Shown: piece after piece, positions 39,203-48,072 of the stretch
How the letters are laid out: each line of letters starts with the position of its first letter
How positions within the stretch are numbered: the first letter of the stretch is position 1
DNA from: a virus
Taxonomy: Duplodnaviria > Caudoviricetes
Direction: 5' to 3' (one strand)
Virus record (IMG/VR): IMGVR_UViG_3300032254_000001
Location: 1 to 64,000 of that record
Length of the DNA: 64,000 bases
Translations under genes and position numbers: made by a program
Notes under the pieces: model-generated
Database searches by the model: none
What the model saw: only the letters and a program-made list of their open reading frames with translations
Told to the model about the DNA's origin: nothing

Positions 39203-39289
39203 TGGTATTCCGGACGGGAATCGAACCCGCTAATTGCTTTCGCAAAGCCTGAGTGAAAGTCAGGTGACCGACCGTTAGTCATCCGGAAT
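39203..39289 (-). tRNA. tRNA-Glu(TTC) with long variable arm
   Basis: CCTGA-CTTTCAC-TCAGG then TTGC-GAAA-GCAA arm. Confidence 0.8.
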
Positions 39290-39295
39290 ATAATT

Positions 39296-39382
39296 TGGAG
39301 CCAAGAGTGAGATTCGAACTCACGACGGGGTTACCCCTCCGGCTTACAAAACCGGTGCAATCGTCCACTATGCGACCTTGGC
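39296..39382 (-). tRNA. tRNA-Thr(TGT) with long variable arm
   Basis: CCGGT-TTTGTAA-GCCGG then GGGG-TAA-CCCC arm. Confidence 0.8.
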
Positions 39383-39398
39383 AAGATAAAATGTACTT

Positions 39399-39475
39399 TG
39401 GGGTGAAGGACGAGATTTGAACTCGCATCTGACTCATTCACAGTGAGGGGCTTTACCAATTAAGCTACCGACACC
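39399..39475 (-). tRNA. tRNA-His(GTG)
   Basis: CTCA-CTGTGAA-TGAG, genomic G-1, C73-CCA. Confidence 0.88.
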
Positions 39476-39490
39476 CCAAAATACACTCGT

Positions 39491-39515
39491 AAAAAAGCAG
39501 ACCGGAGTCTGCTTT
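39491..39515 (-). terminator. intrinsic terminator
   Basis: AAAGCAGAC-TCCG-GTCTGCTTT followed by T tract on minus strand. Confidence 0.75.
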
Positions 39516-39517
39516 AT

Positions 39518-39686
39518 GGTTGTGGGACGCGGACTTGAACCGCTGGTAGATTTCCTTCCCAACTAATTTAGCTATGGGCTTCAACTCCACAGCCCAAGAC
39601 AGTAACTCAAATACTTGCCCGAGGCGGTCGACTAGGTAGTCCCCAAGTTATGAGCAAGGGCGATTTATTGTGTAGTCGATACCACA
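39518..39686 (-). ncRNA. unassigned structured RNA ending in T-arm and CCA
   Basis: 3' GCGG-TTCAAGT-CCGC..TCCCACA-A-CCA; internal stems CTTGCTC/GGGCAAG and GGGCT/AGCCC. Confidence 0.45.
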
Positions 39687-39713
39687 CCGAAGTGCCTAAC
39701 TAAAATTCTAAAA

Positions 39714-39831
39714 TGGTGCCTCCCGCGAGACTTGAACTCGCATGACTTTCGTCGGGGGATTTTATCGAACACCCTTATTTAAAGATGCTCTGTAAAAGTC
39801 CCCTGTGTATGCCTGATTCCACCAGAGAGGC
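39714..39831 (-). tRNA. tRNA-Leu(TAA) interrupted by a 32-nt hairpin insertion
   Basis: class II body; GGGGA-CT[32 nt]TAAAA-TCCCC. Confidence 0.75.
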
Positions 39832-39895
39832 TTTGTTTTTGTTTATTTATTATAACATCATGTGCTTCAAATAAATACCGTATAGGAGAAACACA

Positions 39896-40510
39896 ATGAA
39901 TAGAATACAAGAATACTTACCAAGCTACTGCTACAGTTCATCTAAGATGAAAAGCGTAGATGGTATTGTTATCCACTATTTCAGTGGTAAGTATCAATTT
40001 GCAGATGATCCGTTTAACACTGAAAAATGTTTAAATCTTTTTAAAGACTTAAACCGTCCCGCTAAAGAGCGAGAACACTTTAAGATGAACGATGTGCAAA
40101 AGCGTATGTACGCTTCAGCACACTTCATGATTGCACGAGACGGTACAATATATGATCTAGTTCCACTTCCACAACGTGCATGGCATGCTGGTAAATCCGA
40201 ATGGAACGGTAAGTCGCATTGCAATAACTGGATGGTTGGTATCGAAATGGTTGCTACTGGTAGCAGCGGATACACAGACGAACAGTATAAAGCACTTATT
40301 AATCTTACTGAAGAACTAATTAAAGAACACGATATCTCTTGGGATAACATCACAGGACACGAAAATGTCGCTCCTGGACGTAAAAGAGATCCAGGTTCAA
40401 AGTTTGATTGGGATCGTTATCGCGCAATGAAAGAACCAGCTAAGTTAGCATATGCTGCCGCTATGGCTGAATACATTCCGTGGGCTGACGACGAAGACGA
40501 CGATTTTTAA
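39896..40510 (+). CDS. N-acetylmuramoyl-L-alanine amidase (Amidase_2/AmpD-like)
   Basis: IVIHY, SAHFMI..DG, AWHAG, IGIEM-like VGIEM, GHENVAPGRKRDPG. Confidence 0.92.
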   Translation: MNRIQEYLPSYCYSSSKMKSVDGIVIHYFSGKYQFADDPFNTEKCLNLFKDLNRPAKEREHFKMNDVQKRMYASAHFMIARDGTIYDLVPLPQRAWHAGKSEWNGKSHCNNWMVGIEMVATGSSGYTDEQYKALINLTEELIKEHDISWDNITGHENVAPGRKRDPGSKFDWDRYRAMKEPAKLAYAAAMAEYIPWADDEDDDF

Positions 40511-40512
40511 TT

Positions 40513-40598
40513 TGGTGCGCCGGGTGGGTTTCGAACCCACACGCTCTTTCGAGCACGAGGTTCTTAGCCTCGCATGTCTGCCATTCCATCACCAGCGC
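40513..40598 (-). tRNA. tRNA-Leu(AAG)
   Basis: CGAGG-CTAAGAA-CCTCG, long variable arm, A73-CCA. Confidence 0.88.
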
Positions 40599-40600
40599 AT

Positions 40601-40683
40601 TGGTACGTCCGGTGGGATTCGAACCCACAAAGGTCTGGTGTTTGAAACCAGTAGCTGTGCCAATTTACATTAACCACGGACGC
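40601..40683 (-). tRNA. tRNA-Leu(CAA), no variable arm, enlarged D arm
   Basis: CTGGT-TTCAAAC-ACCAG; D region GTTAATGTAAATTGGCACAGC. Confidence 0.75.
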
Positions 40684-40691
40684 ATTACATT

Positions 40692-40774
40692 TGGTACCTG
40701 GGGCGGGAGTCGAACCCGCAAGGGTCTGGAGTCTAAATCCAGTAGCTGTGCCAATTTACATTAACCACCCAGGC
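40692..40774 (-). tRNA. tRNA-Leu(TAG), no variable arm, enlarged D arm
   Basis: CTGGA-TTTAGAC-TCCAG; same D region. Confidence 0.75.
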
Positions 40775-45932: not shown

Positions 45933-46007
45933 ATAAATTCTTGCAGTTTCTCCGACTCGATCCGTTAACTAGTATGGATGTCCGTACAATGCCTCGTAGA
46001 AGTAAAT

Positions 46008-46081
46008 TGGTGGACACGCGGAGAGTCGAACTCCATCTTCCTCATTGCAAAAGAGGTGCTTTCCCGTTAAGCTAACGGCCC
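46008..46081 (-). tRNA. tRNA-Ala(TGC)
   Basis: CCTCT-TTTGCAA-TGAGG, G3:U70, bulged acceptor. Confidence 0.78.
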
Positions 46082-46161
46082 ATGATTTGGAGGAAAGGGT
46101 TGGCTTTTCACCAACTATAAACGGTAACAGAGAACGTTGTGTTACCTCACTCGCCATTGTT

Positions 46162-46235
46162 TGGTGGAGATTCGGAGAATCGAACTCCGATCAAAGCGTT
46201 GCAAACGCCCCGTAATCCCGTTATACTAAACCCCC
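46162..46235 (-). tRNA. tRNA-Ala(TGC)
   Basis: GGGCG-TTTGCAA-CGCTT, G3:U70, A73. Confidence 0.88.
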
Positions 46236-46256
46236 AATTGTTTGGCTTTATAAATT

Positions 46257-46331
46257 TGGCTCCGGTAGCTGGAATCGAACCAACCTGCCACAGATTAACA
46301 GTCTGCTGCCACACCTTGCGGCCCTACCGGA
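46257..46331 (-). tRNA. tRNA-Asn(GTT)
   Basis: GCAGA-CTGTTAA-TCTGT, U1-A72, G73. Confidence 0.9.
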
Positions 46332-46332
46332 A

Positions 46333-46776
46333 TTATCCGTATTGCGGTAATCCCCTAGCCTTGCGACCTTTACCTGTGTTTTTTGCGCCAAATGTTTCTT
46401 GTTGACTATCACAGTTTGGACATACCATTTGAAAATTGTCTGGATGATCGTTTGATGCATTGCCGTCAATGTGATCACACCATAGTGAAATAGGTTTATT
46501 GTTCCAGCTATCGATGCCACAGATATTACATTTATTGCCATCCCGCTTAATAACAAATTCTCTGATCAGCTTTCTCGGAGTTTTTAATCCTAAGTCACAT
46601 CCTGCTAACCAATCCTGATATCGTTTCTCAAATAACTTTTGCGATTTATCTTTTCTATAATTTATATTACACACTGTACTACAAAATTTATGATTATAAC
46701 TATAACCTTTGAACTTAAATTCTGTACTACAATGACCGCATATAAAAGTTTCGTCTTTTTTCCTTTTGATGTTCAT
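46333..46776 (-). mobile_element. HNH homing endonuclease between two tRNA-Asn genes
   Basis: CNICG..WCDHIDGNASND..NFQMVCPNCDSQ. Confidence 0.88.
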
Positions 46777-46954
46777 ATGGTAGAGCCTTTTAAAATAGTT
46801 ATATTTTATTTATCACTCTACCACCTGAACAGAAATTTTAAACTACTTTATCACGACATTGATCGCCACCACAGCAACCCTGTTTCGTTCAATTTCGTTA
46901 AGGTAGCATTACACAACTTCACCGGTTAAGATCCGCCTTCATGTAACCCTTAAT

Positions 46955-47040
46955 TGGCTCCGAGAGTAGGGATCGAACCTACGTTGTTTACACAAGCCTA
47001 TGGTTAACAGCCACGCGCATTACCACTCTGCCACCTCGGA
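46955..47040 (-). tRNA. tRNA-Asn(GTT) with long variable arm
   Basis: TGG-CTGTTAA-CCA then TTGT-GTAA-ACAA arm, G73. Confidence 0.8.
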
Positions 47041-47050
47041 ATTATAAATG

Positions 47051-47187
47051 CTCTTACTGGGGCAGGCTGGGATTCTAACCCACAACGACTTGACTATTGT
47101 CGCGTTTGCATGTAACGCACCGAGGGTCAACTCGTCAAGTTCCACGCCTTTACATACCCGCGGTATGCTTCTCTGCCCCAGTAAGAA
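47051..47187 (-). ncRNA. structured RNA with 15-bp closing stem and T-arm-like hairpin
   Basis: TTCTTACTGGGGCAG/CTGCCCCAGTAAGAG; GCATACC/GGTATGT; ACTTGAC/GTCAAGT; GTGGG-TTAGAAT-CCCA. Confidence 0.6.
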
Positions 47188-47199
47188 CACTTTTAAAAT

Positions 47200-47273
47200 T
47201 GGAGCCTGGTAAGGGACTCGAACCCTCATCTGTACGTTGGCAACGTACGGTTCTACCGTTGAACTAACCAGGC
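47200..47273 (-). tRNA. tRNA-Gly(GCC)
   Basis: GTACG-TTGCCAA-CGTAC, U73-CCA. Confidence 0.9.
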
Positions 47274-47274
47274 G

Positions 47275-47952
47275 TTATTCTTGTTTTAATACTCTACCTT
47301 TTTTAAAACCTTCTGGTATAGTATCATTCTTTTTGATCTTTTTATTAATTGTTCCGTCTGTTATCCACATCGTTCCGTACTGTGAATTGCCACTGCCTTG
47401 CTGACACTTAGATGAATTTGCACCTATAGCATCTTTTGTTTCTTGTGTATGCTTCTTATTTTTAAATGTACCGTGACCGTAGCGTTCAAGTATAGTTGCT
47501 TTAATCTTTTGTCCTGCTTGCTTGAACGATTCAGGCGTTCTATTTTTACCTGACATTTTACCAATGATACTCTTGAAATCATCACCGTACTTTTCTAGTA
47601 ATATACTATCTGTTATTTCTCGTGCCCTGCGATTCTTTTGAATACGTGCCTCTTCGTTAGAGTTTATATAATCCCATCCACCAAAGCCACCAACCTTAAG
47701 ATTGTATGTATTTTCTTCTGCAATAAAGTCTTTATTAACTATTTCGGCTTCTTTATTAAACATATCTTCTGGATTGTCAAATACATGTAAAATTTCTTTG
47801 CTAAAATTTTCAACACCGTGTTTATTAATTGCATAGTTAAGGTACTTTCCTGAACCTAAATAACCATCGTTTAAGTTACTGGTCTTATGCGCGCCTATAT
47901 AGACCTTGCCTGTAACTTTATTTGACGTCTTATAAATTGTATAGTAAACCAT
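47275..47952 (-). mobile_element. GIY-YIG homing endonuclease (NUMOD3 C-terminus) between two tRNA-Gly genes
   Basis: TIYKTSNKVTGKVYIGAH..DGYLGSG, HTQETKDAIG; start moved to MVYY. Confidence 0.9.
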
Positions 47953-47993
47953 ACTATTATTTATGACGTTCGAGTCCATATCGAACTCTAATG

Positions 47994-48072
47994 AGCGGGT
48001 GACGAGAATCGAACTCGCCATGCTTTCGCGTCTGGTTGGAAACCAGGTTCCACACCTTGTGGACTCACCCGC
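47994..48072 (-). tRNA. tRNA-Gly(TCC) with extended variable arm, no encoded CCA
   Basis: CTGG-TTTCCAA-CCAG then GC-GAAA-GC arm, U73. Confidence 0.75.

Follow-up and report, generated by a model that had tools for sequence, protein, structure and literature searches.

The window analysed here, the first 64,000 nucleotides (64 kb) of the 344,483-bp contig held as IMG/VR virus record IMGVR_UViG_3300032254_000001 (40% G+C), carries an array of tRNA genes in which nine members combine a class I anticodon with a long variable arm. The contig is that of a jumbo phage and was assembled from a microbial-mat metagenome. The array extends over roughly 33.4-49.2 kb of the minus strand and comprises about 45 tRNA genes; ARAGORN at default settings called 38, Rfam added 3, and ARAGORN in relaxed or intron-aware mode several more. 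In bacteria a long variable arm is reserved for the tRNAs of Ser, Leu, Tyr and Sec and is treated as an identity mark, and this single array holds nine exceptions to that rule.

An earlier note on this DNA had listed long arms on nine tRNAs whose anticodons (UUC, UGU, UUU, UAU, CAU, GAU, UUG, GUU and UCC) are none of those for Ser, Leu, Tyr or Sec, and had named short-armed twins with the same anticodon for six of them. ARAGORN and Rfam recovered eight of the nine in the places it gave, as tRNAs of 86-92 nt including CCA, and ARAGORN returned all six twins; the ninth, Gly(UCC), is a weaker case (Table 1). It was seen only by ARAGORN at a relaxed threshold and missed by Rfam, and its 3' end reads UCA with no encoded CCA. 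The other eight score 42.5-58.1 bits against Rfam RF00005 (cut-off 29), the long Lys copy above its own twin (56.3 versus 36.6). All nine have the class II shape, in which a stem-loop forms within a variable region longer than 10 nt, the stem being just 2 bp in the Gly copy. ARAGORN draws the eight with normal acceptor, D, anticodon and T arms and a hairpin between the anticodon and T arms, Infernal places the extra 13 nt (Lys) and 11 nt (Thr) in the variable region with the four standard stems intact, and unconstrained RNAfold predicts a five-arm cloverleaf for most of the long tRNAs. Seven of the nine are plain 7/5 tRNAs; Glu and Gly permit an 8/4 alternative via A8-U65 (A8, G49.U65), and the Glu copy is drawn as 8/4 by ARAGORN. 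The T loops are intact and CCA is encoded in 8/9 genes. The long genes are interspersed with normal tRNAs in the same tight strings and share their pattern of CCA plus a 6-nt spacer, so that they are presumably transcribed and cut out together with their neighbours. The long Met copy is the sole initiator-type tRNA seen in the array, and its initiator hallmarks, read from the sequence, are a C1xU72 mismatch, A11:U24 and three G:C pairs adjoining the anticodon loop.

Table 1. Long-armed tRNA genes of the window, their short twins and the Ser and Tyr reference genes. Positions count from the first letter of the window.
Feature	Position	Strand	Remarks
tRNA-Glu(UUC), long, 87 nt	39203..39289	-	arm with 4-bp stem and GAAA loop; A1-U72 and A73 like twin
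tRNA-Thr(UGU), long, 87 nt	39296..39382	-	G1-C72, C2-G71, U73; D arm and interior resemble phage Ser(GCU)
tRNA-Lys(UUU), long, 87 nt	40945..41031	-	A73; anticodon stem and arm nearly identical to phage Ser(UGA)
tRNA-Ile(UAU), long, 92 nt	43347..43438	-	member of widespread phage family; family model score 43.3
Ile(UAU) variable-arm hairpin	43380..43394	-	4-bp stem, 7-nt loop CAGAUUA
tRNA-Met(CAU), initiator-like, long, 86 nt	43529..43614	-	arm with GAAA loop
tRNA-Ile(GAU), long, 88 nt	43959..44046	-	5-bp arm; A1-U72 and A73 like both other Ile tRNAs
tRNA-Gln(UUG), long, 86 nt	45072..45157	-	phage Tyr(GUA) body; A1-U72, U73
tRNA-Asn(GUU), long, 86 nt	46955..47040	-	Ser(GCU)-type interior, Asn-type acceptor stem (U1-A72, G73)
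tRNA-Gly(UCC)-like, long, 80 nt	47993..48072	-	G1, C2, U73; short GAAA arm with 2-bp stem; weakest member
tRNA-Glu(UUC), short twin, 74 nt	49072..49145	-	ARAGORN
tRNA-Thr(UGU), short twin, 75 nt	622..696	-	ARAGORN
tRNA-Lys(UUU), short twin, 76 nt	40781..40856	-	ARAGORN
tRNA-Ile(GAU), short twin, 74 nt	43879..43952	-	ARAGORN
tRNA-Gln(UUG), short twin, 74 nt	33469..33542	-	ARAGORN
tRNA-Asn(GUU), short twin, 75 nt	46257..46331	-	ARAGORN
tRNA-Ser(UGA) and tRNA-Ser(GCU) of the phage	44053..44329	-	acceptor GGAAGA, G73, arm stems 5-8 bp; reference for Ser identity
tRNA-Tyr(GUA) of the phage	44979..45065	-	directly downstream of long Gln in the transcript, 6-nt spacer

Two accounts of the arms themselves were considered and rejected. 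Copies of one inserted element they are not, as they have little in common beyond GNRA-type loops. Nor does the arm loop carry the cognate codon: GAA in the Glu copy and AAA in the Lys copy occur only by way of the GAAA tetraloop, and Met, Gly, Thr and Gln fail.

The long and short copies of one anticodon serve codons in high demand. In 176 long open reading frames (ORFs) of the genome GAA ranks first in frequency, ACA fourth, AAA fifth, AUU sixth and AAC ninth, and the anticodons found in two copies serve commoner codons than those found in one (p = 0.002). The six anticodons with a long and a short copy hold demand ranks 2, 3, 5, 8, 10 and 14 of 32 (Mann-Whitney p = 0.002), and the same trend is seen for short-short duplicates (Ala, Pro) and for the long-long Tyr pair. 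Extra gene dosage is the simplest reading of the twins, and placing the second copy on a different body would avoid a direct repeat only 6 nt away.

Where the second body came from is visible in three of the long copies, Gln, Asn and Lys, whose interiors (positions 8-65) were remoulded from a Tyr or Ser tRNA under a class I anticodon. The interior of the Gln copy is 81% identical to a Tyr tRNA and 58% to its twin; that of the Asn copy is 76% identical to Ser(GCU) of the related locus L001 (twin, 57%), and that of the Lys copy 72% identical to a Ser(UGA) tRNA (twin, 59%). Exact runs of 7 and 16 nt in the anticodon stem and arm are also common to the Lys copy and Ser(UGA), although the Lys arm pairs over 3 bp and that of its Ser relative could pair over 5 (pairing by eye). 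The interior of the Thr copy probably derives from a Ser tRNA as well (70% identity to Ser(GCU) of L012 versus 56% to the twin). The donor genes, Ser(UGA), Ser(GCU) and two Tyr(GUA), are retained in the array. Anticodon-masked body models, built from about 1,600 distinct phage tRNAs, were used to score the eight ARAGORN-called long tRNAs: the Gln copy scored 54.5 as Tyr and 9.1 as Gln, and the Lys copy 38.0 as Ser and 30.3 as Lys. The top model for the Glu and Asn copies was that of their own amino acid, Thr, Met and Ile(GAU) were ambiguous, and Leu was never the top model.

A 20-nt stretch of the long Gln gene, comprising the acceptor-stem end and the D arm (GTAGGAAARTTGRTAACCCC), occurs in at least 119 IMG/VR contigs (L012-L130); among the matches listed its carriers are tRNA-Tyr(GUA) in 112/117, Gln(UUG) in 4 and Asn(GUU) in 1. 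The strict conservation of GTAGGAAARTTGRTAACCCC within the tRNA-Tyr(GUA) family spans very different phages. A Tyr-type body is also found in other phage contigs under Lys(UUU) (L144:4014-4099) and Asn(GUU) (L073:12507-12592); the latter has U1-A72 and G73, and the former still has G1-C72 and A73, marks common to Lys and Tyr.

Beneath the new anticodon the acceptor end was converted too, at least in part. In the Asn copy the conversion is wholesale, with 0/14 acceptor-stem positions matching Ser(GCU) of L001 and 9/14 matching its own twin; in the Gln and Lys copies it concerns the 1:72 pair and/or the discriminator. G1, C72 and A73 are about 99% conserved across 69 distinct sequences of the Tyr family, and all six Tyr-derived Gln or Asn tRNAs changed these positions to a weak A-U or U-A first pair with G73 or U73. 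The long Glu, initiator Met, Ile(GAU) and Gly copies have acceptors of their own amino acid, the best match of the Glu acceptor being Glu tRNAs (13/15), and the comparisons pointed to no foreign donor for their interiors. A similar pattern is seen between two Ser(GCU) genes, 44243-44329 of the window and L001:3112-3198, which agree at 14/14 acceptor positions and are only 60% identical in the interior, so that interiors seem to have been exchanged beneath conserved acceptor stems. The two genes apparently occupy matching positions in their arrays, and the L001 interior instead resembles that of the window's long Asn copy.

The acceptor marks bear directly on which amino acid the long tRNAs would carry. 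Two possibilities had been put forward in the earlier note, a nuclease-resistant backup set and deliberately mischarged tRNAs; the idea of a backup set agrees with the encoded CCA, the 6-nt strings and the anticodons for the commonest codons, resistance to nucleases being plausible, and the second runs counter to the cognate discriminators. Its further suggestion that G73 plus a long arm makes the Asn copy Ser-like was mistaken, G73 being the normal Asn discriminator and present in the short twin. In each of the nine the discriminator base is that of the phage's short tRNAs for the same amino acid, and most also keep the cognate kind of 1:72 pair: U73 is found in all three Gln tRNAs (the long and two short ones), U1-A72 and G73 in both Asn tRNAs, A1-U72 and A73 in both Glu and all three Ile tRNAs, A73 in all three Lys tRNAs, and G1, C2 and U73 in both Gly tRNAs, and the U73 of the long Thr copy recurs in Thr(CGU) and Thr(GGU), two of the three other Thr tRNAs. 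The Ser tRNAs of the phage and its relatives have GGAAG and G73, with two exceptions, but the full Ser set (G1-C72, G2-C71, G73 and a long arm; GGAAGA plus G73 in this phage) is present in 0/9 of the long tRNAs. In the Asn copy G73 is combined with U1-A72 and C2-G71, and in the Lys copy G1 and G2 go with A73 and an arm of 3 bp. Arm stems measure 2-5 bp in the long set and 5-8 bp in the phage's own Ser tRNAs. By placing an Asn-type acceptor over a Ser-type interior, the Asn copy reverses the choice expected of a tool for mischarging, and cognate marks together with short arm stems argue for cognate charging and against a design for mischarging. The literature supplies rules for such a case. Two acceptor base-pair changes turned an amber tRNA-Ser from Ser to Gln identity (PMC9976931), which means that a long-armed body can be a substrate of glutaminyl-tRNA synthetase (GlnRS). 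Asn identity resides in the anticodon and G73, and the leucyl-tRNA synthetase (LeuRS) of Escherichia coli requires A73 and core tertiary features, not the arm (PMC9976931).

From these features we consider the long-armed genes to be real phage tRNA genes whose products are, more likely than not, ordinary isoacceptors, charged according to the anticodon despite the class II-style arm. The cognate synthetases of the host would charge them via the anticodon, the discriminator and the first base pair, and EF-Tu and the ribosome would tolerate the arm as they do in natural Ser, Leu and Tyr tRNAs. A second copy on another body would provide extra dosage without a recombination-prone repeat, and a different body may show a different surface to tRNA-cutting defence enzymes of the host.

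Several points weigh against this reading. The Glu, Ile(GAU) and Gly copies have A8 in place of U8, and the Gly(UCC) gene, sub-threshold and without CCA, may be decaying. Lack of residue 47 counts among the major identity elements of E. coli tRNA-Glu (PMC9976931), and an arm at that position could hamper charging of the long Glu copy. With G1-C72, G2-C71, C11-G24 (D stem by eye) and a Ser-derived arm, the long Lys copy might undergo some serylation, and mis-leucylation is possible as 5/9 have A73. The identity rules used are those of E. coli and may not be the host's. The Thr donor assignment is borderline, and comparisons of long with short tRNAs lose about 7.5 to the gap penalty, so that long partners are favoured in the core scores. 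The last point concerns the frequency of such tRNAs: among class I calls, long forms are far above background, with 8/32 here and 45/1414 in the 119 phage tRNA loci used for comparison (Fisher p = 1e-5), or 7/31 and 18/1387 when the Ile(UAU) family is excluded (p = 4e-7), but the background loci were chosen via one Tyr tRNA motif and hence are a biased sample. In any other locus the maximum is 4 long class I tRNAs.

Relatives of the array were reached, in IMG/VR and in metagenomes, via an AAA ATPase gene inside it (37990-39120). Related contigs also carry long class I tRNAs, though not always the same ones. Two long Gln(UUG) occur in L001 and L009; in L003, L011 and L148 the long class I set is Ile(UAU), Glu(UUC) and Gly(UCC), with long Ile(UAU) in L003 and L148 and long Glu and Gly in L011; L144 has a long Lys(UUU) of 86 nt; and L135, which belongs to a contig of 363 kb, carries a Trp of 87 nt and, at 14474-14563, an initiator-like Met of 90 nt. 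To our knowledge the long-armed initiator, found here and in the 363-kb relative, would be the first initiator of class II shape. Long Gly(UCC) relatives are present in L011, L012 and Vibrio phage Pontus. One relative, L002/L010, has zero long class I tRNAs among the roughly 46 tRNA genes covered, from which it appears that the trait belongs to the clade but turns over. A near-identity search of the region against GenBank phages gave trivial tRNA-Met matches only.

One member of the set is widespread. The long Ile(UAU) family comprises at least 26 distinct sequences and occurs in 41 GenBank phage records, mainly of Vibrio phages; in the analysed set 27/27 distinct Ile(UAU) tRNAs are long, compared with 1/62 of Ile(GAU). 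In Pontus (MK907780) it is annotated merely as a 93-nt tRNA-Ile, at 78308-78400, and the tRNA cluster also has, at a distance of about 2 kb, an 87-nt tRNA-Gly(UCC) at 76149-76235. Family members combine the UAU anticodon with a 3-4-bp arm and a 7-nt loop, NAGAUWR, in which AGAU is as invariant as the anticodon across the 26 sequences; the window's member fits (CAGAUUA). The three core pairs of the arm are 100% paired in the 26 sequences, although 4, 12 and 11 of these differ at both partners, and whole-structure covariation is 0.69 against 0.20 in shuffled controls and about 0.13 with the partners slid. The conserved loop and covarying stem indicate that this arm is under selection of its own. 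T4 had been considered as a short-armed UAU comparison and was set aside; its tRNA-Ile is a 74-nt tRNA of CAU type and hence uninformative on UAU.

Dosage, repeat avoidance and nuclease evasion are each a possible selective reason for the long bodies. Evasion by the long copies is plausible, and we tentatively entertain, as a possibility that falls well short of an even chance, that they are kept mainly because a Ser- or Tyr-type body with its arm escapes tRNA-cutting enzymes of the host (or of the phage itself) that read the normal body. Such a benefit would explain why the copies are kept, and the long tRNAs could still be ordinary isoacceptors. The main targets of AriB, the PARIS nuclease, are Lys(UUU), Thr(UGU) and Asn(GUU), which it cleaves in the anticodon stem between positions 40 and 41, and phage T5 evades it by variant tRNAs (PMC12409363); P2-OLD likewise cleaves the anticodon stem (PMC12445682). 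Each of these three isoacceptors is present twice in our phage and all three belong to the long set, the AriB site adjoins the exit point of the arm, and the array is near genes for Acb1 (33940-34458) and an RNA-repair HAD domain of Pfam (50967-51560). The published escapes are base changes at the cleavage site, however, and involve no arm, and it is the short Lys twin that is altered at positions 36-41, the long copy retaining the E. coli-like UAAUCA. Codon demand already accounts for the twin pattern, and the long tRNAs of relatives cover Trp, Gly and Glu, which have no obvious tie to known nuclease targets. As to the two genes that flank the array, one is an anti-CBASS gene (Acb1, E = 7.5e-36) and the other matches the HAD domain of 'Swiss Army Knife' RNA-repair proteins (E = 1.2e-15).

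A second proposal concerns the extra hairpin, chiefly that of Ile(UAU), which might act as a handle that shows a recognition element to the cognate synthetase. The loop NAGAUWR fits 6/7 positions of CUGAUAA, the anticodon loop of E. coli tRNA-Ile(GAU); the invariance of AGAU equals that of the anticodon, and among the Ile tRNAs counted above the long form is universal in Ile(UAU) and rare in Ile(GAU). A loop of this kind is peculiar to the Ile(UAU) arm, however, the other eight having generic GAAA, UAA or other small loops; the geometry is a predicted one, and the loop also holds the codon AUA or AUU, so that other readings exist. We regard such a handle as unlikely. Slightly less doubtful, and still doubtful, is the broader view that body swapping is a systematic strategy against body-reading tRNases, in which the anticodons of attacked host tRNAs are moved to Ser- or Tyr-type bodies whose arm and foreign anticodon stem would block such enzymes, with the Ile(UAU) arm as a surrogate GAU anticodon arm. 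The initiator tRNA is a target of VapC, and candidates for such swapping are, besides the PARIS set of Lys(UUU), Thr(UGU) and Asn(GUU), the initiator, Glu and Gln. If this were true, the synthetase would read one hairpin of Ile(UAU) and the ribosome the other.

Loss of function is a less probable account still: the long genes could be non-translational or decaying copies, either pseudogenes or tRNA-like decoys or regulators. The sub-threshold Gly(UCC) gene without CCA, A8 in 3/9 and the odd tRNA-like genes of the array (45446-45518, 43711-43784 and 36327-36399) point that way, but 8/9 score 42-58 bits on RF00005, the Lys copy far above its twin, with intact T loops, encoded CCA and spacers like those of their neighbours, and the long initiator Met and Ile(UAU) are kept in relatives with compensatory changes.

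Nematode tRNAs with a V arm have been reported to be leucylated. Deliberate mischarging, by which seryl- or tyrosyl-tRNA synthetase or LeuRS would load the long tRNAs and insert Ser, Tyr or Leu at Lys, Asn, Gln and other codons, could draw on the long arm being the main Ser identity element (PMC9976931), on bacterial allo-tRNAs with non-Ser anticodons that are proposed Ser acceptors (PMC5389517) and on the G1-C72, G2-C71 and Ser-derived arm of the Lys copy, but it is very improbable in view of cognate discriminators in 9/9 and the cognate kind of 1:72 pair in most, an Asn acceptor with no match to its Ser relative, the loss of G1, C72 and A73 in 6/6 Tyr-derived Gln and Asn tRNAs, arm stems shorter than in the phage's own Ser tRNAs, and affected codons that are the phage's most frequent, so that every phage protein would suffer.

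Other features of the array were noted in passing. Phe(GAA) at 43801-43873, a second Tyr(GUA) at 44884-44966 and a second Ala (UGC; anticodon by eye) at 46011-46081 were missed by default ARAGORN and recovered by Rfam or relaxed ARAGORN. The tRNA-like genes at 45446-45518 and 43711-43784 lack CCA and have abnormal anticodon loops (4-nt 'gtga' and 2-nt 'tg' in ARAGORN), and the body of the former is strongly Glu-like (model score 42.5). The converse oddity is found in three Leu-like genes at 40601-40683, 40692-40774 and 37792-37878 (minus strand; anticodons UAG, CAA and UAA by eye), which have a short variable region and an enlarged D loop that they share, and which escape both default ARAGORN and Rfam; short Leu tRNAs of 78-79 nt occur in the relatives L002 and L003, and 67 were found among the 119 IMG/VR loci listed. 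Four tRNA-like genes of 91-93 nt (L133:3840-3930, L134:4975-5065, L012:2563-2655 and L076:5963-6055) contain TTTTCAGCAAA in a variable region that is A/U-rich and looks unstructured, and ARAGORN assigns them odd anticodons; the genes with TTTTCAGCAAA may be another long-armed family. Directly after the Gly(UCC)-like gene begins an ORF (47275-47950, minus strand) resembling GIY-YIG homing endonucleases (weak SegE match and a GIY-YIG-like motif), a placement that recalls segB within the T4 tRNA cluster, and homing nucleases of this kind could drive turnover of the array. A 427-aa ORF within the array (41492-42775) has no relative in IMG/VR and no match in Pfam. For the region or a 1.9-kb piece of it no RNA data set was listed, the matching sets being two microbial-mat DNA runs.

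The long set shows how readily phage tRNA arrays cross the boundary between tRNA classes. For annotation this means that the calls of tRNA finders on such genes are probably right on the amino acid, yet mask the unusual body. The long and short pairs with the same anticodon are ready substrates for asking whether synthetases and tRNA-cutting defences read the tRNA body, and the presence of the 93-nt Ile(UAU) and the 87-nt Gly(UCC) in cultured Vibrio phages brings these questions within reach of bench work.

Alloacceptor remoulding, or anticodon shift, has been described for metazoan mitochondria (PMC4783518) and eukaryotic nuclear genomes (PMC3923123). As there, the anticodon of a duplicated gene has changed and the interior is nearer to the tRNAs of another amino acid, here in the Gln, Asn, Lys and probably Thr copies. 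The present case differs in that the donor is class II (Ser or Tyr) and the codons are class I, the arm thereby crossing the class boundary, in that the acceptor end was also converted and the donor genes were kept, and in its setting, a phage tRNA array; a literature search found no phage example of alloacceptor remoulding.

The nev-tRNAs of nematodes are reportedly Leu-derived and leucine-charged. Long arms with anticodons other than those of Ser, Leu and Tyr are described for nev-tRNAs and for bacterial allo-tRNAs (PMC5389517, PMC7609411). Like the phage tRNAs, nev-tRNAs combine a long arm with an anticodon for Gly or with that of Ile(UAU) (work of Hamashima et al., cited in PMC5389517), but the bodies here are Ser- or Tyr-derived or unassigned, Leu is not among the top models, and the acceptor marks fit the anticodon. 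Allo-tRNAs and the (8/4) phage tRNA-Ser/tRNA-His (Mukai et al. 2017, PMC5389517) also have a long arm and many non-Ser anticodons, UAU being prominent, and some allo-tRNAs sit in phage tRNA clusters (PMC5389517). They are 8/4 or 9/3 tRNAs with a Sec-like D arm, mostly G73 or U73, and proposed to accept Ser (PMC5389517), whereas plain 7/5 tRNAs predominate here. With 7/5 structures, Ser or Tyr donors and acceptor marks that match the anticodon, the long set appears to fit neither family, and the literature search found no description of long-armed 7/5 class I phage tRNAs. The tRNA-Lys, -Thr and -Asn of T5 that counter PARIS (PMC11464382, PMC12409363; PMC10264068) are, like ours, phage Lys(UUU), Thr(UGU) and Asn(GUU) tRNAs unlike the host type; they differ in having a normal shape and in owing their escape to single-base changes within the anticodon stem-loop, whereas the long set differs in its whole body and has an added arm.

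The su+3 mischarging mutants of tRNA-Tyr form a further parallel, acceptor changes in them having reportedly given a long-armed glutamine acceptor. In these mutants and in the engineered amber tRNA-Ser that became a Gln tRNA (PMC9976931), changes to the 1:72 pair, the discriminator and nearby acceptor pairs yield a GlnRS substrate. The same positions are altered in all natural Tyr-derived Gln tRNAs described here, which thus form a natural counterpart of the classical identity-switch experiments: the engineered switches are laboratory mutants, whereas those of the phages are natural and recur in several phage contigs.

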